Below are positions 15,610-62,271 of a stretch of 64,000 nt of DNA, piece after piece. The DNA lies in contig JACQCQ010000002.1 in the NCBI GenBank assembly GCA_016201505.1, positions 76,750-140,749 of the forward strand. The letters are read 5' to 3'. This stretch comes from Candidatus Sungiibacteriota bacterium. GTDB lineage: Bacteria; Patescibacteriota; Minisyncoccia; Sungbacterales; JACQCQ01. The translations under genes and the position numbers were made by a program. How positions within the stretch are numbered: the first letter of the stretch is position 1; each line of letters starts with the position of its first letter. The notes below the pieces were generated by a model. It was not told where the DNA came from. It did no database searches and saw only the letters and a list, made by a program, of their open reading frames with translations.

Positions 15610-15765
15610 TTGCAATTTAGCTAATGCTTCGCTATCATTTTGTGGTATGCCAACTCAAGTTTCCCCCAAGTCTAATGCCGATCAATATCACGGAGTGATT
15701 TTGAGAACGGCGGACGTAACAAGGTCGGATAGGAATTTAGGTCTGGGGAAAATTTAAGCGGGTAT

Positions 15766-16347
15766 GAATCCCGTTAGAAGCCGCGATCGCATACACGGGG
15801 TACAATGGTATGAAGCTCCTCAACATGAATAGTTTAACTCGAGCGATAACGCGAATGATCGCGATCTGCTTCTAACGGGATGAATCCCGTTAGAAGCCGC
15901 GATCGCATACACGGGGTACAATGGTATGAAGCTCCTCAACATCCTCAACATGAATAGTTTAACTCGAGCGATAGCGCGGATGATCGCGATCCCGCTACCA
16001 CAAATCCTTCTTGGATCTGGCTACGGGACAAGCATACTATGACAGATGTATTATTAACTACGACTCGCCCCGTAGTCACCGAGTCTATGAGGTGTACTCA
16101 CGGGGTCTGCTTCTAACGGGATGAATCCCGTTAGAAGCCGCGATCGCGAAAACCAATCTTTCCGAGAGTTTATTTTAATACTTAATGTTAGGCAGACTCC
16201 GCGTTTGATCGCGATCCCGCTACCACAAATCCTCCATGGATTTGGCTACGGGACTAGAGAGCTATGACAGGCTTACTATTAACTACGGCTCGCCCCGTAG
16301 TCACCGAGCACGTGAGGTGTACTACTGGGGTCTGCTTCTAAACGGGA
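15766..16347. mobile_element. array of three MITE-like units bounded by the inverted termini GAATCCCGTTAGAAGCCGCGATCGC … GCGATC(T/C)GCTTCTAACGGGAT
   Basis: Unit junctions form 45-bp palindromes (ctgcttctaacgggatgaatcccgttagaagccgcgatcgc). Units 1 and 2 share a 5' module. Units 2 and 3 share a 140-nt 3' module (gatcgcgatcccgctaccacaaatcc…). A solo copy lies at 58884–58994. Confidence 0.6.
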
Positions 16348-36293: not shown

Positions 36294-36668
36294 ATGGAAC
36301 CATCGCAAAATTCAGCCTTTTCCACCCAACCATCGCCTCAACCGATGCCGCATCTGTCCATGGTACCGCCGGTCATGCCCGATGGGGCAAAGACGGCGGG
36401 ACATCATCGCTGGTATGGATATTTGCTCTTAATCCTTCTCGCTGTCGCCGTGTTTGGCGCGATCTGGGTTTGGTATGCAAATCAGGATTATTTTGATAAC
36501 GCACTGACAGATCAAATGAATCAAAGTGCCCGGTCAGCGGCCATCTTCCAAGCGGCGGCCCAGGATAAACGCATTGAGTCTTTAAACGCCGAAGTCCAAT
36601 CAGCCGATCTCGACGCGCTCGGCAGTCAGGACTCACAAGATTTGAAAGCGGAGTTGAGGAGTAAGTAG
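36294..36668 (+). CDS. hypothetical membrane protein
   Basis: It has one TM helix, 'YGYLLLILLAVAVFGAIWVWY'. Confidence 0.4.
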   Translation: MEPSQNSAFSTQPSPQPMPHLSMVPPVMPDGAKTAGHHRWYGYLLLILLAVAVFGAIWVWYANQDYFDNALTDQMNQSARSAAIFQAAAQDKRIESLNAEVQSADLDALGSQDSQDLKAELRSK

Positions 36669-36722
36669 GAAATAGGTAATAGGAAATAGGTAATAGGAAA
36701 TGGGAAATAGGTCATAGGTAAA
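36668..36722. repeat. tandem 14-bp repeat GGAAATAGGTAATA ×4
   Basis: Read directly. The same motif recurs inside the next CDS at 36994–37040. Confidence 0.8.
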
Positions 36723-36783: not shown

Positions 36784-37182
36784 ATGCACCAGAAATTGCC
36801 GAAAGATGATGCCAGATACCAATGGACCAATCACGTGGTCCATAAGATGCGCCAGTATGCGTTGTCCGAAAGCCGCGTGAAGCGCGTGGTTTTAAATCCT
36901 AAGCGCATCGAGGCAGGCATTGCGCCGAAAACCATTGCCGTCATGCAGTCGGTGGGAACAATGAAAAAACCATTTGAAATTTGGGTGATGTATCAGGAAT
37001 TAGGAAATAGTAAAAAGGAAATAGGTAATAGTAAAAAGAAAACGTTTGCGGCGTTTCAAAATTTTCAGCCGGTTCGCAAACGAATTATTACCGCCTGGAG
37101 ATATCCGGGGAAATCAAAGCCGAGAGATAAGCCGCCGGTGCCGCAGGATATTCTCGATGAGCTTGTCAATGGACTTAATTAA
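36784..37182 (+). CDS. hypothetical protein containing a repeat-derived 'ELGNSKKEIGNSKKK' insert
   Basis: 132 aa. The internal DNA repeat 'aggaaataggtaatagtaaaaag' matches the upstream tandem repeat. Confidence 0.35.
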   Translation: MHQKLPKDDARYQWTNHVVHKMRQYALSESRVKRVVLNPKRIEAGIAPKTIAVMQSVGTMKKPFEIWVMYQELGNSKKEIGNSKKKTFAAFQNFQPVRKRIITAWRYPGKSKPRDKPPVPQDILDELVNGLN

Positions 37183-43320: not shown

Positions 43321-43395
43321 AGTTGACTACAGACTACTGTCTACAGTCTACGGCGCAAGCGGTAGTCAGTAGACTGTCAGTGGTAGTCAGTCAGT
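43321..43395. repeat. imperfect palindromic repeat element (gactacag / gtctacagtctac / gcggtagtcagtag modules)
   Basis: The same 13- and 14-mers recur at 52221–52305, inside a 23S rRNA insertion. Confidence 0.7.
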
Positions 43396-49689: not shown

Positions 49690-50438
49690 GCGGGTTACGA
49701 GTCTATCCAAGAGTCAGCTTGACTTGCATTACGCTACTATAGTAGTATTTCTGAAGCTAGATTAAGGTAATTATTCGAAGCTATTTGATCAAATGCAAAC
49801 GTACTTCCAATTGAATACCACTGCGGCCTCGGATGAAAGAACATAAGCCCCTCTCGTAGGGAGACTTAGGTAGATGAGGTCGCCGGAAGGCGATTTTTCG
49901 TTCGAACGTCTTTTTAAAAACATTTGATTTCCCACCGAGAAATCAGATTCGCCACTCTCCTCGCGATCGCTTCGCGAACCGTGGTCGCTTCGTCGAGTGA
50001 GCGTTCTAAAAAGATATTCTTCACTTGAGCTTCGTAGGAAAGGTCGCTTCGCTCCCCACATTCAAGAAGTTGGAGATGACGACTAGTTAACTAGAAAACT
50101 AGAAAACTAATCGGTGTCTCTGAAAACGTTTTCGTACGCTTACGGAAAAAGTAGGAGGCAAGATTTTTGACATAAGGCTAATAATTGCAAAAGGGTAATA
50201 AACCGATGCTTCGCATCGGAATGTCTAATTTTCAATTTCTAATTTCTAAACTTTTTACGCCACATCGCTTCATTAGAAATTAGGTATTAGGAATTTGGAA
50301 TTTCCGATGCGGAGCATCGGAAAATTGTATTTTCAGTAAACTCTTTGGAGTTTATTGAAGCGTGATTCGATACAAATTTGTTATGTACCTGAATTGTGGA
50401 ATGTAGAAGTAACTAGACGAGAAGAGGGGAGACACTCT

Positions 50439-50675: not shown

Positions 50676-51133
50676 CGTTCATCATGGGGAAGGTCAGTAC
50701 GACTTCCCCTCCACAATTCAGGTACATACAAACATAAGTCGAATCGCAAATGGTTCGGCAGGCTCACCACAAGTGAATCTGTCGAACTTTCTCTCGATGA
50801 TTCTTGAGACTCGTAATTACATTACTTGTCCCGAGCGAAGTCGAGGGATCTCACTCGTTCTCTGATGAATGTCAGAGGACAAGAAAATAAAAAGCGGTTA
50901 TTAAGGGCGCATGGTGGATGCCTTGGCTTTAAACAGCGATGAAGGACGTAGCGTGCTTGCGATAAGCATCGGGGAGGTGGCGAGCAACCTTTGATCCGGT
51001 GATGTCCGAATGGGGAAACCCTAGGGGAGTAATGTTCCCTAACCCGTCGTGTAATAGCGATGTGGAGTCAACCTGGTGAAGTGAAACATCTCAGTAACCA
51101 GAGGAAAAGAAAACAAGTTGCTTCGCAACTTTT

Positions 51134-51203
51134 ATCAGCGAATAGCGAATCCCGTACGAATAAGCGAATTCGTTTATTCGAAAAGATTCGTAATTCGTTG
51201 ATG
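51134..51203 (+). repeat. IVS hairpin element copy A (71 nt)
   Basis: The sequence is atcagcgaatagcgaatcccgtacgaataagcgaattcgtttattcgaaaagattcgtaattcgttgatga. It is identical to the copy at 55191–55261. Confidence 0.75.
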
Positions 51204-51610
51204 ATCGAGCGCAGTGAACATTCCGTCAGTAGCGGCGAGCGAACGCGGAACAGCCTAGAGGAATCAGTTTGCTAGTTTACTAGTTCGCTGGTTCCAGTTG
51301 TAAGTTTAGTTCGTAAAAGAGCAATCTTTTGAAGAGTGTAAAAATTAAGACTTCGTTAGGAGAATGGTCCTGGAACGGCCAACCACAGAAGGTAATAGTC
51401 CTGTACACGAAAACGGTCTTATACTCTTGGAACTTTACTTGAGTACTGCCCAGTATGACGACTGGGTAGGAAGCAGGGAGAACTAGTCTCCCAAGGCTAA
51501 ATATGTTTAAAGACCGATAGTGAACCAGTACCGTGAGGGAAAGGTGAAAAGCAGCCCGGTGAGGGCGGTGAAATAGTACCTGAAACCATGTGCTTACAAG
51601 GAGTCGGAGC

Positions 51611-52110
51611 TCGCTTCGCTGACGAAGCGGTAGATTCAAAATCTTAAAACTGCAAAATCAAATATTTCCTTTTGTGTATCTGAATTGAAAAAATAAGGAG
51701 GTGTCAATGGCATACCCCCAAGATGAAATCGCACGCCTGCGGGAAATGCTGCGGCTTGATCAGATGTCGCCGGAAGAGCTGGTACGGTTTCTTAAACTGT
51801 TTTGGGAGATTACGGAGAGCAAGGTTCTCGAGCGCGGCGCCGAAGGCAAGGATGTCTTTAACGCCGGGTTGGCTGAATGGCTGCTCACGATTGCTGTAGT
51901 TGCCATCGTGCGGTCTTTTATTGATCGCGCTGACAAGAGAGCGATTGTCCGAACCCTCAAAGCCTCGTTACCGGCGAAGATTTGGGAAGTTTGCCGGCCG
52001 CTTTGCGAGCCCTTGCTCTCAATTCCCGGGGAGTGATCCGTCAGCCGACGGACTCCCCGTTCAATTCAGATACATAAAAATAGTTTTGAATTTTGTAGTT
52101 TAGTTTTTAA
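51611..52110 (+). mobile_element. helix-25 intervening sequence carrying a 110-aa ORF, flanked by perfect 12-bp inverted repeat gtatctgaattg / caattcagatac
   Basis: The insertion follows 'cttacaaggagtcggagc', the classic H25 IVS site. The inverted repeats lie at 51682–51693 and 52060–52071. Confidence 0.6.
51707..52036 (+). CDS. hypothetical 110-aa protein encoded inside 23S rRNA IVS (MAYPQDEIARLREML…)
   Basis: It has a strong RBS (AAGGAGG, 5 nt spacer). It is followed by the hairpin gatccgtcagccgacggactcccc. No known homing-endonuclease motif. Confidence 0.45.
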   Translation: MAYPQDEIARLREMLRLDQMSPEELVRFLKLFWEITESKVLERGAEGKDVFNAGLAEWLLTIAVVAIVRSFIDRADKRAIVRTLKASLPAKIWEVCRPLCEPLLSIPGE

Positions 52111-52389
52111 ATTTAGCGACGCGTCAGCGGAGCGAGTAACGGCATGCCTATTGAAGAATGAGCCAACGAGTGTATGGAGATTGCTTGCTTAACCCCGCCC
52201 TTTGCGCAGTAGCGCAAAAGGCGGAACTGACAGTCTACAGTCTACCGACTACAGCAGATGTTGTTGTTCATGCGGTAGTCAGTAGTCCGTGGTCAGTAGT
52301 CCGCCCCTTGTTAGTGAACAAAGGACGGGGGGAGGCGCAGGGAAACCGAGTGTTAACAGCGCGTAAGCACCTCACTTTGTTCGGTGCCT

Positions 52390-52461
52390 ATCAGCGAATA
52401 TCGAATCCAAAACGAATAAACGAATTCGTTTATTCGAAAAAGATTTGTAATTCGTTGATGA
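52390..52461 (+). repeat. IVS hairpin element copy B (~90% identical to A)
   Basis: atcagcgaatatcgaatccaaaacgaataaacgaattcgtttattcgaaaaagatttgtaattcgttgatga. Confidence 0.7.
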
Positions 52462-53030
52462 CCGAGCGAAGCGAGGCTGCATGTAGTCTTCATACGACCC
52501 GAAACCAAGTGAGCTACCCATGGGCAGGGTGAACTTTGAGTAACATCAAAGGGAGGCCCGAACCGGTTGGTCGTACAACGCCTTCGGATGACCTGTGGGT
52601 TGGAGTGAAAAGCTAATCGAACTTGGAAATAGCTGGTTCTCTTCGAAATAGCTTTAGGGCTAGCGTCAAATCACACCGTAATGGAGGTAGAGCACTGGAT
52701 GGACTGTAATGGGGCAACCCAGGCAGTCCAATCAAACTCCGAATGCCGTTACGCGTTATTTTGGCAGTCAGCAGGCGGGGGCTAAGCTCCGTCGTGCAAG
52801 AGGGAAACAGCCCAGACCGCCGATTAAGGTCCCTAAATCAATGCTAAGTGTATAAGGCGGTGGAATTTTTAAAACAGCGAGGAGGTTGGCTTAGAAGCAG
52901 CCATCCTTTAAAGAGTGCGTAACAGCTCACTCGTCAAAAGATTCTGCGCCACAAATGTAGCGGGGCTAAGCATTGTACCGAAGTCGCGGGTTGCGCGCTT
53001 CACTTTTGTTCAGCGCGCTCATCATCGAAT

Positions 53031-53116
53031 AGCGAATCACGAACGAATAAACGAATCACCATAACCGTATTCGTATATTCGCAGCAAATTCGTTATTCGC
53101 TGATAGAGCGCCGAGC
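53031..53116 (+). repeat. helix-45 IVS hairpin (diverged palindromic variant)
   Basis: The sequence is atcatcgaatagcgaatcacgaacgaataaacgaat…attcgttattcgctgatag. It lies at the canonical H45 IVS position, between 'gaagtcgcgggttgcg' and 'gagcgccgagcagc'. Confidence 0.6.
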
Positions 53117-54034
53117 AGCAGCGAGGCGCGTAACGGTAGAAGAGCATTTGCATCAGCAGTGAAGGAGGACCCGCGAGGGCCTCTGGAGCGGTGCGAAGAG
53201 AGAATGTTGGCACTAGTAACCGCAAGTTAGGTGAGAATCCTAACCGCCGAAAGTCCAAGGTTTCCTTGGCAATGCTAATCAGCTAAGGGTTAGTCGGTCC
53301 TAAGGGAATGGTGAAAACCGCACCCGATGGATACACGGTTAATATTCCGTGACTCGAGTTTTGATCGATGGCGGGACGGAGCGTTGTACATTCTATGGAT
53401 TATTGGATTTCCATTTCTGTTATGAGGAAAGCGCGTAGGCAAATCCGCGCGCTGGGTTAGACCCGCTTCCAAGTAATGGGATAATGCGTTTCTTCGGATT
53501 CGCAAATAGAAAGGAGCACGCTTCCCAGAAAAACGTCTAAGATTATCTTGACTCGAACCGTACCGCAAACCGACACAGGTGGACTAGTGGAGAACACTAA
53601 GGCGAACGGGTGAGACCTCGTTAAGGAACTCGGCAAAAAAGCGGCCGTAAGTTCGCAATAAGGCCTGCCTCATTGAGGCTGATAGAAGGAAAGAAAGCAC
53701 TGCACAGTGTTGGTTTTTGAATTTGTGTTTTGTGCAACGTATTCTCGAAAAGCGTTTGCATTTGTTCCAGCGACAAATGCAACTCGCCAAGCTCGCAAAA
53801 ACTTTTTGTTTCGACAAAAAGACCAAGCTTTTCGCTCGCTTGAGCGTTTTCTTAAATACGTTTGCACCGATATGGATTCTTGATCGAACACTGTGCAGTG
53901 CAAAAGAGAAAGGGCAGATTTTTGCTGATGCAAAAATCTGAAACTAGAAAACTAGAGCCGCGAAAGCGGCGTAACTAGAAAACTATAGTTGTAACTCTGA
54001 ATTGCGGAGTTAAATAGTTCGCTGGGGAAAAGGT

Positions 54035-54130
54035 ATGAACTCGCAAGGAGAAGTAACGCCACTGGCGTTGATGGGACTTGCGACCGTTTTTGCCATATAT
54101 CTTCTCTGCCAGCTCATCTGGGCGGGATAG
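54035..54130 (+). CDS. 31-aa hydrophobic mini-peptide MNSQGEVTPLALMGLATVFAIYLLCQLIWAG
   Basis: An RBS-like 'ggggaaaagg' precedes it. It lies inside the rRNA insertion. Confidence 0.3.
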   Translation: MNSQGEVTPLALMGLATVFAIYLLCQLIWAG

Positions 54131-54142
54131 TGGAGGATATGA

Positions 54143-54271
54143 ATGTCCAGGCTGGCGGCATATCCGCTGTTCCTTGTCTGTTGGACTCCGTTCATGATTG
54201 TGATCGGGTTCATCATCGGGATCATGATCGAGCGATCGGGTCGGATTCTTGCGGCCGAGGAGGAGGTATGA
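54143..54271 (+). CDS. 42-aa single-TM mini-peptide MSRLAAYPLFLVCWTPFMIVIGFIIGIMIERSGRILAAEEEV
   Basis: The RBS 'tggagga' precedes it. Its stop overlaps the next start (ATGA). Confidence 0.35.
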   Translation: MSRLAAYPLFLVCWTPFMIVIGFIIGIMIERSGRILAAEEEV

Positions 54272-54390
54272 GAACAGCCATCGGTTTTATGATCACTATT
54301 GGGATCATGGCTGCTGTTGTGATCATCGATCGGTGGTGCAAGCGGCGCCTGCCGATGCGCGGCATCTTCGGGCCGTATCGGCAGGCATAA
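54268..54390 (+). CDS. 40-aa single-TM mini-peptide MRTAIGFMITIGIMAAVVIIDRWCKRRLPMRGIFGPYRQA (paralog of previous)
   Basis: The RBS 'gaggaggagg' precedes it. It shares the 'IGF.I.IGIM' core with the upstream peptide. The hairpin gatccgtcagttgacggagactcccc follows. Confidence 0.35.
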   Translation: MRTAIGFMITIGIMAAVVIIDRWCKRRLPMRGIFGPYRQA

Positions 54391-55190
54391 GGAGACGAGG
54401 GAGTGCGATCCGTCAGTTGACGGAGACTCCCCCAACCCTACTAAAAATGTAGGGCCGCAATTCAGGGTTACAACAGGTCTAAGTTTAGGCGCGATTGCGC
54501 GAGCGAGCGGTAAGTTCTTAAAGAAAGGAGAAGTACGCGGACCGAAGAGGATCTGCCGAATCGAGGGCAGCACATGTGCATACCGGAGTAGTCGACGGTC
54601 ATTCGGCAAGACCTTACGCCCCTCCGCATAGTTCTTTGATCGCTCGTGCAAAAAAATATGGAGGGCGCAGACCTTCGGGTCTCGGTATAGGCAGGTAGCC
54701 TGCCCCTCCGCCATTCGCCAACTGGTGAAGCCAACTGGTGAAGCCAACTGGTGAACTCGAGCAGAGAGTCTCCCGCCAGGGTCTCTTCTCTGTAAAAGAT
54801 GGGCGGTCCCGCCGCCCGTTACTCGAGCACCCCAGCGGCCTCCCTAGCCCGGGGCCGCTGGGGTTCGAAAATCACTATGTCGGGCGCGACGTGAGCTCTC
54901 CTGGTAGGGGATTGCGTCGACTCACCCGGCAGAACGCGGCGGCGGTTCCCCCCGGAGCCGCCGCCGTCGTAAACACTTTTCTCTTATTTTTCTCCTCGAA
55001 ATTCGAAGTCGGATTTCGATCCTTCTATCAGCCTCTTTGAGGCCGCAGCGAAAGATTCTCTGGCGACTGTTTACCAAAAACACAGGTCCCTGCTAAACAC
55101 GTAAGTGGATGTATAGGGGCTGACGCCTGACCAATGCGAGAAGGTTAAAGATTGTGGTTGCTTCGCTCTTGCTTCGTAACATCAGCGAAT

Positions 55191-55261
55191 AGCGAATCCC
55201 GTACGAATAAGCGAATTCGTTTATTCGAAAAGATTCGTAATTCGTTGATGAAAAGCTGTGG
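55191..55261 (+). repeat. IVS hairpin element copy C (identical to copy A)
   Basis: The 71-nt sequence is identical to 51134–51203. Confidence 0.75.
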
Positions 55262-55329
55262 AGCGTGAGCGGAGCAGCTAACGGTCCCAAGCCCTCGTCA
55301 ATGTCAGCGATAACTATAAGTAACGATTG

Positions 55330-56140
55330 TAGTTATAAAATTTGGCTATATGTTCCCAATTTGTCTGCGAGCGTTAGCGAGTGGCTAACAAATCGCAATC
55401 CCGTGGCCTTACAGTCACGAGACAAAACAAATTCGGGAAACCCGAAGTCACGCCGCGCAATACGAAAGTGTTGGTTGCGGGGGAAGGCTTTGGGGACTGG
55501 AAAACCCGCGAATGCAGAAGTACTTCAATACCACGTAGTATTGAAGTAACAATCTTCTGCCGATTCGTGAAGGTAAGATGGATGTATTCCGCTCGCAATA
55601 TGAACGGATGTATCCGCCGAAGCCTTGGCGAAGGCGGACAATCAGCAGGAAAGATTCTAATTGGTAAAAATTAGAAAATCCTCAGAGACTACACGCCAAA
55701 CTCTTCAATGCACTCGAGTCTGTCGAGCTAATTGGATAGATGATATAGTCCGAACTCTATGGTGACATAGAGAGTTGACCCGAGAGAGGGTCAGAGTAAC
55801 ACTAAATGAATCGTTCTAAGGTGAATAACACTGCCTTAGTAAAATCTAGCTATATCGGTGAACACCTTACACTTTAATACTTTAAAGTATTAAAGTGTAA
55901 GACAATACCGAGGCAACCCCGCCAAAATTTTGCACGAGCAAAACTTAGGCGGGTGAGTCCGTAGAGACTACACGCTAGACTCCAATCCGCAGTTGGCGGA
56001 GGAGAAGATATAGTCCGGCCTCTATGGCGACATAGAGAGATGCAGAGAAATCGTGCATCCGGATTCATGATTCATAATTCTTGCTTGCCCTTCCGTAGCT
56101 CTAGAGAGCAAAGGAGGGATTCATGATTCTAGTAACAATT
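55330..56140 (+). mobile_element. ~0.8-kb ORF-less insertion (group I intron-like) at the 23S 1917–1931 (I-CeuI site) region
   Basis: It interrupts 'taactataa | …gcgtaattccttgtcgggtaag'. It contains an internal ~100-nt duplication (55680–55800 versus 55958–56060). It also contains the 36-bp perfect palindrome cttacactttaatactttaaagtattaaagtgtaag (55866–55901). Confidence 0.45.
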
Positions 56141-56739
56141 CGAGCGTAATTCCTTGTCGGGTAAGTTCCGACGTGCACGAAAGGCGTAACGACTGGAGAA
56201 CTGTCTCAACGAGGTGCCCGGTGAAAATACAATATCGGTGAAGATGCCGATTACCCACAGATAGACGAAAAGACCCCGGGAGCTTTACTGCAGCTTGATA
56301 TTGGCAATGAATACTTTATGCGTAGCATAGATGGGAGACTTTGAAGTCGTGGTTTCGGCCATGATGGAGTCGCCAGTGAAATACCATTCTTAAAGAATTC
56401 TTTGTCTAACTTGTAGAGACGAAACTCTATGCAGACAGTGTCTGGCGGGCAGTTTAAGTGGGGCACTTGCCTCCCAAAAAGTAATGGAGGCGTTTATTAA
56501 GGTTGGCTAGCGCCGGATGGAAATCGGCGTCGTCCCGTAAAGGGAAATGCCAGCTTGACTGCAAGGCGGGTATGCCGCGCAGGTGCGAAAGCAGAACTTA
56601 GTGATCCGATGGCTATGGTTGTTTAGTTTACTAGTTTCGGTCTTTATTGACCTACTGGTTTTCTAGTTTTCGAACTAGTTAACTAGAAAACTGGTGAACT
56701 GATCAATTTCTTGCTAGAACAAGGCCAAAGCTCATCAGC

Positions 56740-56770
<31 letters not shown>

Positions 56771-56903
56771 GCTTCCAAGAGTTCATATCGACGAAGCGGT
56801 TCGGCACCTCGATGTCGGCTCGGCTTATCCTGGAGGTGGAGAAGCTTCCAAGGGTTTGGCTGTTCGCCAATTAAAAAGTCACGCGAGCTGGGTTCAAACC
56901 GTC

Positions 56904-57741
56904 AACAAAAGAACCCGAAAATGACATCGAAACATTCAACAAGTTTTTGATAGGAGCTTGTTTGAAACACACGGCGGCCCCTGGTAGCAATGCCGGGGAG
57001 CGAAACCCGTAGAATCCCAAGGGGGTCCGGGTAAGAAAACCGACTCATATCGATGAAATCCACGTATGCATTCAACCTGTCATATGTTAGGATAATATCG
57101 AGGGAAGTCGTGTATGTTGCAATCGTTAACGCAAAATCAAAGGGCATATATTGCAGGTTTTCTTGATGGAGATGGAAGCATTTATGTGCGAGCAAAACCA
57201 AACCCTACTTATCGGTTTGGCTTTCAAATTGCTCCATATATAGTATTTTTCCAGTCACAATCTAGTCAGGAAAGATTTGGGGAGATATGCAAGTTGATTA
57301 GCGTGGGACATTTACGCATTCGAAGTGACGGTATTCTTGAGTACATCATAAATCGTATTGATGAAATCAAGATGTTGCTGGAATGTGTTCGTCCCTTCGC
57401 AATTCTCAAAAGGCGACAGATAGATTTGATGTTGAAAATAATTGAATCAAAGTCGCAAGTAGAGAACGAAGACGATTTTGAGAAACTTCTTCAACTAGTA
57501 AATTCTTATCGAGAATTAAACTATTCTAAGAAGAGAAAGCAACGTTCATTGACCCCGTAGAGACTTGTCGTGAAAGCGGCAGAGTAATTCAGAAATGATT
57601 TGCTAACACGTCGGTCACCCATTAAATGTAGATACTGTTTAATGGGTTGGTGGTATAGTCCAATCCCTCTAGTAATAGAGGAAGGTTAAGCATTTAGTAA
57701 CCTTAATTCTTGACTCTAAATTCTTAATTCTAGTAAACAGC
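56904..57741 (+). mobile_element. group I-type intron at 23S position 2593 (I-CreI homing site) encoding a LAGLIDADG endonuclease
   Basis: The exon junction is 'gggttcaaaccgtc | gtgagacaggttgg', which corresponds to the E. coli sequence AACGTC^GTGAGACAG. Confidence 0.7.
57114..57560 (+). CDS. single-motif LAGLIDADG homing endonuclease, I-CreI-like
   Basis: The motif is 'YIAGFLDGDGSIYVRAKPNPTYRFGFQ'. Overall similarity extends to I-CreI ('LAGFVDGDGSIIAQIKPNQSYKFKHQ…LVLKIIE' versus 'IDLMLKIIE'). Confidence 0.8.
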   Translation: MLQSLTQNQRAYIAGFLDGDGSIYVRAKPNPTYRFGFQIAPYIVFFQSQSSQERFGEICKLISVGHLRIRSDGILEYIINRIDEIKMLLECVRPFAILKRRQIDLMLKIIESKSQVENEDDFEKLLQLVNSYRELNYSKKRKQRSLTP

Positions 57742-57883
57742 GTGAGACAGGTTGGTCTCCTATCTTCTGTGGGCGTAGAAATTTGAGAGGGCTTCTGGAC
57801 AGTACGAGAGGACCTTCAGGAACAAACCTCTGGTGTACCAGCTGTTCCGCCAGGAGCATCGCTGGGTAGCTATGTTTGGTTGT

Positions 57884-57914
<31 letters not shown>

Positions 57915-58294
57915 ACGCCTCAAGATAAGATTTCATAGATCCCTGAGAGATTATCAGGTTGATAGGGTGCAGGTGTACATGGAGTAATCCATTCAGCCGA
58001 GCACTACTAATAGATCATCACCACTTTTTATTTTCCTTTGCCCGCCGAAGCGTTATGCGACGGCAGGACGGTGAGAATAATACAATTCTTGCCCGCCTAA
58101 GTTTTTCGTTAGAAAAATTTTGGCGGGGTTTATTACCCTTTTGCAGTTATTAGCTTTGAATGTGCGTTTCTCCAAAATAAAACTTGCCGACCTCGAACGC
58201 GCCGGACTCGGCCGCGAGGTCTGAGAGGGAAAGGAGAGCCTCTAAGCTCTTATCCTACCCTCTCTCTAACACCGAGTTTCGTATTTTAAAATTC

Positions 58295-58336
58295 CATCTA
58301 GTACAATATATCCGATCGGATATATTGTACTAGATG
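58295..58336. repeat. 42-bp perfect palindrome catctagtacaatatatccgatcggatatattgtactagatg in 23S–5S spacer
   Basis: Read directly. Confidence 0.8.
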
Positions 58337-58500: not shown

Positions 58501-58621
58501 TTTGCTATTTGCTGGTGTCTTTCATCTTTTGGGTACCACCCCTTCCCATTCCGAACAGGGCCGTTAAACCAAAAGTAGCCGATGATACTCGGAGGTTTAG
58601 CCTCCCGGGAAAGTAGGTGAT
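58501..58621 (+). rRNA. rrf: 5S ribosomal RNA
   Basis: '…gggtaccaccccttcccattccgaacagggccgttaaacc…gccgatgatactcggagg…gggaaagtaggtgatgccagcat' aligns with the 5S consensus. This includes helix I pairing of gctggtg with caccagc. Confidence 0.6.
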
Positions 58622-58883
58622 GCCAGCATATAAAAGATTTGGTTCGGGGACCCCGAGCAATCGCTCCCGCGATATTTGGAGGCAGGGGGCAGGGTCTCAC
58701 TTCGGAAAGCATAGCAGGGCGAAGTCCCGCATCGAGCTTTGCTCTGGTGCGGGATAGCTGCCGCCAGAACAATGCTTTTTATTTTTCCCACGAAGTGGGA
58801 AAAATAACCCTGAGCGCAGTTGAAGGGTCACACTATTCTCATTATTCCTAATTCCTGATTCATAATTCATAATGAAGGGCATG

Positions 58884-58994
58884 GATCCCGTTAGAAGCCG
58901 CGATCGTCGAATGATAGGATAAAATATAACTGATTTAAATATCATTAACACTACGCAGATTCCGCGCAGAATCGCGATCTGCTTCTAACGGGAT
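58884..58994. mobile_element. solo MITE-like element of the 15766–16347 family
   Basis: atcccgttagaagccgcgatcg…(60 nt)…gcgatctgcttctaacgggat. Its 3' terminus ends at the ATG of the next gene. Confidence 0.6.
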
Positions 58995-59778
58995 GGACTG
59001 GCGTACCGCTCGACAATTGACCGTGATTTTTATCGCCGTTTTGGTTGTCGGCGGCATTCTTTTTTTTCTCACCTACGGCTATTTCCATCAGCCGGCATCG
59101 TGTACTGATAACAAGAAAAATCAGGGAGAAGAAGAAGTTGATTGCGGCGGCCCCTGCGAGCCGTGCGCCTTCAAGCATCAAAAGCCAGCAGAAGTTTTTT
59201 TCGCCCGAGTTTTGCCGTTGCGGCCGGGGAACTATGATGTCGTGGCTGAAATTCAAAATCCCAATGATCATTTAGCAGCGAATCCCTTAGCCTATCGGGT
59301 GCATGTGTTTGATGATCACGGAGTTGAAATTGCAACGCGGGAAAATCTAACCTTCGCCTATCCCAGTGACAAGATCTATATCGTTGAAAGCAACTTTCTA
59401 ACCGAGCGCAAACCAGTTCACGCGAGCCTTGAAGTCATTGACCAGGCAACTTTGTGGACATTCACCAATGACTTGCGTCCGGAATTTCAAATTGGCAATA
59501 AAACCTATGTAGTTTCGGCCGACAATGAGGTCAAAGTGACGGCTGATGTGATGAGTCGAGCTGATTTTGGGTTTAATCAAGTTGAAATCCGGGTGGCCCT
59601 GCTCGACAACGCGGGAAATGTCGTAGGGGCGGCTAAAACCATTCTGGATCATGTGAGTCCCCGCCAGTCTCGGCGGGTTGAATTTACCTGGCCGCAGGCG
59701 CCACAAGATTTGGTGGCTCACGTCGACATTGAAGCCAAAGCCAACGGCCTCGATAAAACCAATGTCTTTCTGCCGTAG
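58993..59778 (+). CDS. hypothetical membrane-anchored/secreted protein
   Basis: 261 aa with an N-terminal TM helix and a Cys-rich 'CGGPCEPCAF' segment. Confidence 0.45.
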   Translation: MDWRTARQLTVIFIAVLVVGGILFFLTYGYFHQPASCTDNKKNQGEEEVDCGGPCEPCAFKHQKPAEVFFARVLPLRPGNYDVVAEIQNPNDHLAANPLAYRVHVFDDHGVEIATRENLTFAYPSDKIYIVESNFLTERKPVHASLEVIDQATLWTFTNDLRPEFQIGNKTYVVSADNEVKVTADVMSRADFGFNQVEIRVALLDNAGNVVGAAKTILDHVSPRQSRRVEFTWPQAPQDLVAHVDIEAKANGLDKTNVFLP

Positions 59779-61540: not shown

Positions 61541-61602
61541 TCGCCAATATACGAATCTACACGAAATATACCAATATACAAATTCGTATATTCGTGATTA
61601 CT

Positions 61603-62271
61603 ATGAATCTTGAAATCATCCCCGCCATTAACGCGGAAACGTTTAAAGAAGTTGAGAAAAAAATAAGACAAGTTGAGCCCTATGTTCGCTGGGTGCATTT
61701 GGATGTAGCGGACGGCACATTTACACCAAACACACTCTGGCATAATGCCGCAGAACTTTTTGTTTTAAAGACGAATGCGCTCGTTGAGGTGCATTTAATG
61801 GTCGAGGAGCCGGAGAAAGTCATTGATGCTTGGATCGGCGCCGGGGCCAAGCGCATTATTATACAAGTCGAGACCATCGAAGATTTTACATTCCTCAAAT
61901 CGCGCTGCGATCAACATAAAGTTTTTTTGATGGTATCCGCCGCGCCGCAAACCTCATGGCAAGAACTCAAGCCCTATGCCGCAAAAAATGTTGTCTCGTA
62001 TCAATTTTTGACAGTCTGCCCGGGACTTCCCGGCCAGTCGTTCATCGAAGGCGGGACCAGTGAATATCCTGAAAATATTTTCGATAAAATTAAAGGCTTG
62101 CGAGCAAAATGCAGTTACTGCGACATTGAAGTCGACGGTGGAGTAAGGCCCGGCATTGCGCGCCGCTGCCGCGAGGCCGGCGCTAATCTGTTTGCTGCGG
62201 CTTCGGCGATTTTTAGCGGACTGGAAATCAAAACCGCCATAGACGCGTTAAAAAACGATGTTGCGCTATAA
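61603..62271 (+). CDS. rpe: ribulose-phosphate 3-epimerase
   Basis: It has 'VHLDVADGTFTPN' and the conserved 'VDGG' motif. Confidence 0.8.
   Translation: MNLEIIPAINAETFKEVEKKIRQVEPYVRWVHLDVADGTFTPNTLWHNAAELFVLKTNALVEVHLMVEEPEKVIDAWIGAGAKRIIIQVETIEDFTFLKSRCDQHKVFLMVSAAPQTSWQELKPYAAKNVVSYQFLTVCPGLPGQSFIEGGTSEYPENIFDKIKGLRAKCSYCDIEVDGGVRPGIARRCREAGANLFAAASAIFSGLEIKTAIDALKNDVAL

Follow-up and report, generated by a model that had tools for sequence, protein, structure and literature searches.

A single 23S rRNA gene, found on a 64-kb stretch of DNA from a Candidatus Sungiibacteriota bacterium (contig JACQCQ010000002.1; the whole stretch as analyzed is here called the window), raised the question of how one hairpin of about 71 nt could come to stand in it four times, at four different sites and twice with identical sequence. 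Analyzing this hairpin, to which we gave the family name CGAAT hairpin, we found that it is a cross-lineage family and not specific to rRNA, having members in operon spacers and in frame within protein genes of many other genomes. We consider it likely that the CGAAT hairpin is a non-autonomous palindromic mobile element, resembling the Rickettsia palindromic elements (RPEs), that has settled in tolerant sites of the rRNA.

Four copies of one hairpin in a 23S rRNA gene

The 71-mer ATCAGCGAATAGCGAATCCCGTACGAATAAGCGAATTCGTTTATTCGAAAAGATTCGTAATTCGTTGATGA occurred exactly twice on the forward strand of the window, as copies A and C (for positions of all features, see Table 1), and was matched in none of 100 dinucleotide-preserving shuffles. 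The initial annotation had proposed this pair of identical copies, and the exact match of A and C agreed with that proposal, although the second copy lies 10 nt lower than the interval of 55191-55261 that had been assigned to it. A further copy, said to be about 90% identical at 52390-52461, was found as described (65 of 72 columns, 90.3%), while the diverged relative suggested for helix 45 (H45) indeed falls within the loop of that helix according to the Rfam bacterial large subunit (LSU) model, with the span 53020-53106 and not 53031-53116. Using a profile search, we found only these four strong copies in the whole window, all on the forward strand, where they scored 70-79 bits compared with 40-47 bits on the reverse strand. 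The identity between A and C ended exactly at the ends of the hairpin, with dissimilar flanks beyond. The earlier view of the four hairpins as copies of one discrete element was upheld.

The 71-mer is composed of GCGAATA-type heptamers and their complement, has the ends (T/C)ATCA...TGAT(G/A), and folds into three stacked stems of 10, 7 and 10 bp that are separated by 1x1 and 5x4 internal loops and closed by an AAUU terminal loop. Its fold energy was -32.9 kcal/mol on the forward strand (z -7.1), to be compared with -24.9 kcal/mol on the reverse strand. Each copy caps a basal stem formed by its own flanks, whose length rises from 9 bp in A and 18-19 bp in B to about 26 bp in both C and D, and these stems are rich in G.U pairs that are workable on the forward strand alone. 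A 27-bp hairpin placed on a basal stem of 9-26 bp makes a near-continuous helix of about 35-50 bp per insertion, and the whole insertions A-D gave folds of -42.9 to -67.3 kcal/mol, with z-scores of -5.8 to -10.1 relative to shuffles. The motif 'gttgcttcgc', noted earlier as a mini-hairpin ahead of A and C, does precede both (51117-51126 and 55157-55166, respectively), but minimum-energy folding makes it the 5' strand of the basal stem, paired with sequence located 3' of the hairpin, and not a mini-hairpin of its own.

With regards to location, the view of insertion at different sites of the 23S rRNA proved right in that the four sites are distinct, but needed revision in that copy B lies in a junction linker and that only D occupies a canonical site for intervening sequences (IVSs), with A, B and C being non-canonical. 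Copy A sits in the loop of a mini hairpin with a 2-bp stem, located at Rfam model positions 224-232 (as an insert marked [98]), near E. coli position 228 and within a blastn gap at 227-233, in a helix that we take to be H12. Copy B forms a new branch helix, according to the Rfam alignment, within a linker of 4 nt that comes after the E. coli 638-650 hairpin (blastn gap 652-669), and copy D lies in the H45 loop, seen as the hairpin <<<<<<<<_____ at Rfam model positions 1205-1218. Site C is the tip of the helix at E. coli positions of about 1858-1888, within a blastn gap at 1854-1932; this placement was made by eye against the E. coli sequence, and the helix is presumably H68.

The hairpin family in spacers and protein genes

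A scan for a 24-nt pattern common to all four copies, CGAATCNNNNACGAATAARCGAAT, in which each species was represented by one genome, gave more than 117 loci among the matches listed, whereas a rough estimate put the number expected by chance at about two. The complementary arm was present in most of these matches, showing that they represent real hairpins. All but five of the listed loci carried the label Patescibacteria or Chloroflexota, and the only one of them located in a 23S rRNA gene was that of L046, a Sungiibacteriota metagenome-assembled genome (MAG). The family was found in two forms, with that of Chloroflexota reading GTCAACGAATCnnnnACGAATAAACGAAT, a variable loop and ATTCGTTTATTCGTTnnnnATTCGTTGAC, and that of Patescibacteria being one heptamer longer and containing ATCARCGAATARCGAATC. 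Patescibacteria MAGs with multiple matches listed had 2-3 loci per genome, one Chloroflexota MAG had up to 16, and arrays in tandem, repeating every 87-110 nt, were seen in Chloroflexota (L032 and L095). A metagenome scan with a stricter 35-nt pattern produced a single match, at the non-rRNA locus L119, and no further 23S genes, while a scan of viral contigs gave no matches and thereby no sign of a phage vector. In the window, the sole trace of the CGAAT hairpin outside of rRNA was one weak and degenerate relative in a protein-gene spacer (Table 1).

Two observations on labels and forms can be added. The Chloroflexota variant, which is abundant in MAGs of that phylum, is interrupted by stop codons in every forward frame and is apparently mostly intergenic (L002-L118, such as in the DYJA01 and JAOACU01 contigs). 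Four contigs with the Patescibacteria form (L083, L114, L089 and L097) were labelled as Gammaproteobacteria, Nanoarchaeota and Bacteroidia, and are probably mis-binned contigs from the candidate phyla radiation (CPR).

The Patescibacteria copies examined were found mostly in operon spacers, often those of ribosomal-protein operons, with the flanking genes named by eye from N-terminal sequences. Such copies lay between rpsJ and rplC (in two genomes, both having the full hairpin together with an additional 3' half), after rplW, before rpsH, between infC and rpmI and between rplO and secY, and further spacer copies between rpsF and ssb, before rpmA, before infA, between atpF and atpH, between pilM and pilN, and between proS and mreB. 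By a post-hoc count, about nine of the approximately 19 spacer copies of the Patescibacteria form among the matches listed were in operons for translation factors or ribosomal proteins (L021, L119, L048, L067, L071, L101, L104 and L115), so that such operons appear to be enriched well beyond the proportion that these genes make up.

Twelve further copies among the matches listed were in frame within genes, across eight protein families: MnmA (in four genomes), TsaD, UvrD/PcrA, UvrC, LeuRS, DnaG, GlmS and IscS (two copies). The host protein was confirmed by Pfam for 10 of the 12, mostly with domains matched on both sides of the insert, while the host of the two IscS copies was read from translation only. 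When the four MnmA proteins were aligned, two positions showed the element as an indel, present in some sequences and absent from others. The element is open in two of its three reading frames, both of which were found to be used, giving …SANxESxTNKRI… and …QRIANPVRINEF…, respectively. All of the in-gene copies (12 of 12), like all of the rRNA copies (5 of 5), were co-oriented with transcription. These in-frame copies are all in other genomes, and the window contains no orthologues of their host genes; a concatenated peptide gave no candidates when searched database-wide, and a phmmer search of the 38-residue translated element against 1.84 billion representatives gave no match at E <= 0.001, a query too short for this result to speak either way.

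Separately, in two of the MnmA genes the conserved RYRQPL strand was flanked by direct repeats (L072 at residues of about 321 and 361; L093 at about 323 and 348), with the lineage-specific repeat words ATTCATGATTC, read IHDSKFMI, and AACTTTCAACT, read LSTLNFQL.

Origin of the copies

The 23S core of L046 was about 95% identical to that of the window, as judged by eye over the first 1700 nt of E. coli numbering, and its contig ended about 1.3 kb past copy B, before site C. At site B, this relative carried an orthologous hairpin on the same basal stem. Its site A, however, held an unrelated hairpin of TAGTTGC heptamers with the whole insertion differing, basal part included, and its H45 site an unrelated AATTTTC-type hairpin upon a basal stem homologous to that of the window, with compensating changes seen by eye. 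The helix-25 site of L046 had a short hairpin only, and the insertion at 52196-52326 was absent. The initial annotation had named the same sequence at all four sites in relatives as the outcome that would speak against it, and what we found was that L046 shares B only. Copies A and C were 94.4% identical to the B copy of L046, as compared with 90.3% for the B copy of the window. The two orthologous B copies differed at seven positions, comprising three in an internal loop, a compensatory pair (A31-T40 to G31-C40), one change of G-C to G.U and one just outside of the stem; being structure-preserving, these differences indicate that pairing is under constraint in the rRNA context. Among three homologues of the LAGLIDADG protein encoded in this 23S gene (Table 1), two were on contigs starting inside 23S and one was on a contig having a complete, insertion-poor 23S, in which no hairpin was found. 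It was also observed that the end of the L046 contig and the starts of L123 and L124 fall inside the 23S gene, the latter just before the LAGLIDADG ORF (open reading frame); such breaks of related CPR contigs within 23S would be a natural outcome if short-read assembly were disrupted by introns and repeated hairpins.

The presence of copies outside rRNA, in many genomes and both in spacers and in frame in genes, strengthens the case for a mobile-element origin. Under that reading, copies would survive where a hairpin can be tolerated, such as in spacers of housekeeping operons, in loops or junctions of 23S rRNA and at in-frame sites of genes (with two of the three frames open), where the protein tolerates a loop of 24-30 residues. 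Copy B would be old, because it is shared with L046, and copy D would likewise be old and diverged, on a basal stem that in L046 carries an unrelated hairpin. Copies A and C would be recent, because they are identical with sharp boundaries, and either an insertion or a copying of the hairpin module may have produced them. Mobility itself we infer, since no pair of empty and filled sites was seen within one species.

Several points weigh against this reading. Within the window the copies are all in the 23S gene apart from the one weak relative, and inspection of the flanks revealed no transposase, target-site duplication or conserved target, with no search aimed at a transposase having been made. 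Deep sequence conservation across lineages is unusual for selfish DNA and could mean recognition by a conserved protein. As sites A and D are filled in L046 too, a replacement of modules may have occurred instead of de novo insertion. Across the family, G.U (26) and A.C (28) mismatches were equally frequent in the two outer stems, and thus give no overall hint that one RNA strand is under selection.

Could the copies have arisen with no transposition at all, at old IVS or expansion sites where the hairpins were homogenised by gene conversion within the gene? Conversion would account for A being the same as C, and the copies do lie within 4 kb and in direct orientation, but the identity of A and C stops at the base of the hairpin, leaving no flanking homology in which a tract could start or resolve, and copies B and D, although located between A and C, remain unhomogenised. 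That sites A and D are already filled by other hairpins in L046, with a homologous basal stem at H45, fits with conversion, whereas the insertion at site A differs wholly from that of L046, including its basal part. Since the same unit with the same ends is also found in spacers and genes of many genomes, we regard this explanation as unlikely. Another possibility is a functional RNA or DNA module, kept by selection in rRNA and in operons of translation genes as the conserved site at which a protein particular to the lineage (a nucleoid protein, nuclease or ribosome-biogenesis factor, for instance) would bind or act in processing. To insert in frame into unrelated essential enzymes, at varying positions and in some lineages but not in others, is typical of selfish palindromes and hard to reconcile with a site-specific function, and neither the unrelated hairpins at sites A and D of L046 nor the tandem arrays in Chloroflexota (L032 and L095) fit well with it. 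The module would, on the other hand, explain why sequence beyond structure is conserved across classes of Patescibacteria and into Chloroflexota, why orthologous B copies differ by structure-preserving changes only, the strong co-orientation with transcription, and the location of about nine of the approximately 19 listed spacer copies in translation-linked operons; we nonetheless find it rather improbable.

An assembly artefact, with the 71-mers misjoined during metagenome assembly, seems scarcely credible to us. Between the copies, conserved blocks of rRNA run collinear with those of E. coli, each copy has unique flanks that pair across the hairpin through G.U-rich stems, and copy B is at the same place in the independent assembly L046, whereas the facts that could favour an artefact are that contigs of relatives often break in 23S (L046, L123 and L124) and that Logan contigs of the same organism are short.

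We also considered and rejected a number of known identities for the hairpin. No Rfam family matched it, either in the whole window at the gathering threshold or for copy C at an E-value threshold, with only chance matches to miRNA precursors. A group I or II intron was rejected because a permissive Rfam scan over copy C gave only chance miRNA-like matches, with the true group I introns there scoring 38.8 and 49 bits. No U-run follows the hairpins as would be needed for a terminator, the ends do not fit the GTTRRRY of an integron attC site, a self-cleaving ribozyme had no Rfam match, the internal loops vary in sequence against a K-turn, and a CRISPR array was considered and likewise rejected.

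The CGAAT hairpin has company in the window. A second hairpin family, built from heptamers as GACTACA.../...GTAGTC, was found both in a 23S insertion at 52220-52305, within a hairpin loop near E. coli position 612 where L046 has nothing, and in a protein-gene spacer at 43325-43392, thus having the same double life as the CGAAT hairpin. A third family, of ACTAGAAAAC / ACTAGAAAACTAG type, was found in the leader of the rRNA and within two of the 23S insertions. It appears evenly balanced to us whether a single family of heptamer-built palindromes of about 70-90 nt is common to Patescibacteria and Chloroflexota and has colonised, with the same orientation bias, helices of rRNA, translation-operon spacers and loops read in frame in proteins. 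In recent rooted trees of bacteria the two phyla stand as sister lineages.

Known systems, the fate of the RNA and other features of the window

Classical 23S IVSs at helix 25 or 45 are cut out by RNase III with no religation (summarised in PMC11270868). Bacteria having them include Salmonella, Leptospira, Campylobacter and Coxiella. The insertions studied here resemble these in that stem-loops are located in helix-terminal loops of 23S (A, D and C, with B in a linker being the exception), in that their 5' and 3' ends pair into a long stem-loop, with D being at helix 45, in that they are sporadic between close relatives (with B shared by L046 and sites A and D differing), and in having hairpin stems long enough for RNase III. 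They differ from IVSs in that one hairpin sequence is found at four sites, three of which are non-canonical, and in that the family is mostly located outside of rRNA, including in protein genes. The likeness to RPEs drawn here concerns behaviour only, and we claim no membership of an RPE family. As with RPEs, these are short palindromes of reduced genomes, dispersed in multiple copies (the more than 117 loci listed), found in spacers and in frame in essential genes of eight protein families, variable between lineages and with no transposase known. Unlike RPEs, the hairpin is shorter (about 70-90 nt) and built from heptamers, is found in a whole superphylum and in Chloroflexota instead of in one genus, and is also multi-copy within a single rRNA gene.

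With miniature inverted-repeat transposable elements (MITEs), such as the Correia elements of Neisseria, whose transcribed hairpins are cut by RNase III, and with repetitive extragenic palindromic (REP) sequences the CGAAT hairpin shares its nature of a non-coding palindrome with conserved arms and a variable centre, located in spacers and co-transcribed, with occasional tandem arrays (L032 and L095). In contrast to those elements, it is tolerated inside coding sequence and rRNA. Inverted repeats like those of MITEs are present, the whole element being a palindrome, but it differs from MITEs in having no flanking direct duplication at A, B, C or other copies (a transposase search was not made), and from REPs and REPINs (REP doublets forming hairpins) in lacking a GTAG/CGTC head, with RAYT transposases not having been searched for. 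REPINs are reported to be mobilised by RAYT transposases (PMC3116915, PMC3337134).

As to the fate of the RNA, cleavage by RNase III is plausible from stem length (about 35-50 bp) and from analogy with IVSs. We consider the odds roughly even between excision of the stems by this enzyme, which would fragment the 23S rRNA as in IVSs, and their retention as expansion segments. H68 is on the subunit interface, and for an insertion at its tip we would expect a strong need either to remove or to tolerate it.

A basal-stem motif, 5' CUC(A/G)CU... with 3' ...AGCGAG, was noted to be shared by several insertions, often with an A.C mismatch at the same place (52370-52384/52463-52477, 52998-53019/53109-53126 and 51606-51622/52126-52141, as well as sites B and H45 of L046). 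The sequence AGCGAAGCGAG also occurs 3' of the hairpin in an mRNA spacer of L021, a MAG labelled Saccharibacteria, and GCTTCGC was counted 14 times in the window versus three times for its complement. This shared motif might be a processing signal.

The host gene is about 7.1 kb long. Its blocks are collinear with E. coli rrlB up to E. coli position 2782 at 57929, as found with blastn, and its 3' end we place at about 58030, by eye against the E. coli 3' sequence; the Rfam end at 57015 is wrong, being about 1 kb early, because an 837-nt intron follows. A 5S gene (58511-58628) lies downstream, and no 16S or tRNA genes were found in the 64 kb. The LAGLIDADG protein of that intron is 100% identical to one from a Candidatus Sungbacteria MAG (locus tag HY220_00725). 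A 111-residue ORF at 51701-52036 in the helix-25 insertion had no Pfam match, and the 1.4-kb insertion had no intron match in the whole-window Rfam scan at gathering threshold; small ORFs and a tandem repeat, ccaactggtgaag, were observed within the latter. The gene also contains several hairpin insertions of 100-130 nt. The second intron ends (56060-56130) with a GC hairpin that has the word GATTCATGATTC on either side of it as a direct repeat, as was also seen for the repeat words around the RYRQPL strand of MnmA.

Table 1. Positions of the hairpin copies, the insertions holding them and other features in the window.
Feature	Position	Strand	Remarks
Copy A	51134-51204	+	Exact 71-mer
Copy B	52390-52461	+	65/72 aligned columns identical to A (90.3%), one 1-nt indel
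Copy C	55181-55251	+	Exact 71-mer, identical to copy A
Copy D	53020-53106	+	Diverged, ~70% identity to A, enlarged loop
Whole insertion A	51117-51219	+	Basal stem 51117-51126 with 51209-51219, plus hairpin
Whole insertion B	52367-52480	+	18-19-bp basal stem with G.U pairs and one A.C mismatch; -58.3 kcal/mol, z -10.1
Whole insertion C	55151-55285	+	~26-bp basal stem with many G.U pairs; -67.3 kcal/mol, z -9.0
Whole insertion D	52998-53126	+	Long basal stem and hairpin in helix-45 terminal loop
Weak degenerate hairpin relative	~61541-61603		rpiB/rpe spacer; nhmmer E = 0.0024; flanking genes by Pfam
23S rRNA gene	50889-58030	+	~7.1 kb, at least 12 insertions; Rfam LSU start 50889
Helix-25 insertion	51617-52140		~520 nt; closing stem GCUCGCUUCGCUGACG/CGUCAGCGGAGCGAG
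1.4-kb insertion	53665-55062		E. coli 1705-1769, helix-63 region; long closing stem ctcattgaggctgatagaagga / tccttctatcagcctctttgagg
Group I introns, ORF-less	within 55333-56139		E. coli 1917 and 1931; Rfam 38.8 and 49 bits, just below gathering score
Group I intron	56904-57740		E. coli 2593; single-domain LAGLIDADG ORF 57114-57560
Third hairpin family	50082-50119		Leader
Third hairpin family	53940-53990		In 1.4-kb insertion
Third hairpin family	56640-56711		In 110-nt insertion near E. coli 2405

Insertions are common in such genes, with 82% of CPR 23S genes having them and up to 16 per gene, and with group I introns known at 1917, 1931 and 2593, the same sites as here (PMC11270868). CPR rRNA insertion sequences were reported by Brown et al. 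2015, as cited in that survey, in which short non-intron insertions at H25 and H45 were considered 'probably' to be RNase III IVSs and short ORF-less insertions (<200 bp) remained uncharacterised (Tsurumaki et al. 2024, PMC11270868). Among these insertions the introns are understood. The survey thus concerns the same lineage and the same gene, but its text is without hairpins, repeats, palindromes or a link to a genome-wide family (PMC11270868). CPR rRNA insertions, IVSs and RPE-like palindromes are all already known; in the searchable literature we found no description of the CGAAT hairpin family, nothing relevant on palindromic or MITE elements in CPR, and no report of multiple identical copies in one rRNA gene, of in-frame copies in CPR proteins or of sharing with Chloroflexota.

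If one such family is indeed shared by Patescibacteria and Chloroflexota and has colonised all three kinds of target, CPR bacteria would have an RPE-like system of selfish palindromes, which would be the source of many short rRNA insertions and low-complexity protein inserts in these organisms, and the hairpin may double as an RNase processing signal in transcripts of rRNA and ribosomal proteins. Short ORF-less rRNA insertions of CPR would thereby gain a concrete origin, as modules from genome-wide families of palindromic repeats, and the Rickettsia RPEs would have a parallel in a second and far larger group with reduced genomes. Copying of the hairpin, its orientation with transcription, its excision from rRNA and processing of ribosomal-protein mRNAs are all open to test. 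A practical aspect is that identical hairpins in rRNA genes break assemblies and distort rRNA-based surveys.

Other repeats were also seen in the window. A GC-rich palindrome of 47 nt, CGCGATCTGCTTCTAACGGGATGAATCCCGTTAGAAGCCGCGATCGC, is present in five copies (15744-16147 and 58861-59019), two of which are located just downstream of the 5S gene, and the Logan contigs L121 and L122 of the same organism end about 110 nt upstream of a gene at 58993, near copies of this palindrome. AT-rich and near-perfect palindromes of 32-45 nt were found in pairs (32185-32217/48065-48097 and 7318-7349/62268-62299) and also at 58290-58335, with the first pair directly following a dinB-like gene and efp; these may be terminators. 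Tandem heptamers of AGGAAAT/AGGTAAT (36660-36721 and 36995-37042) stand ahead of a GC-rich terminator-like hairpin, with a related heptamer run, ELGNSKKEIGNSKKK, apparently in frame in the next ORF.

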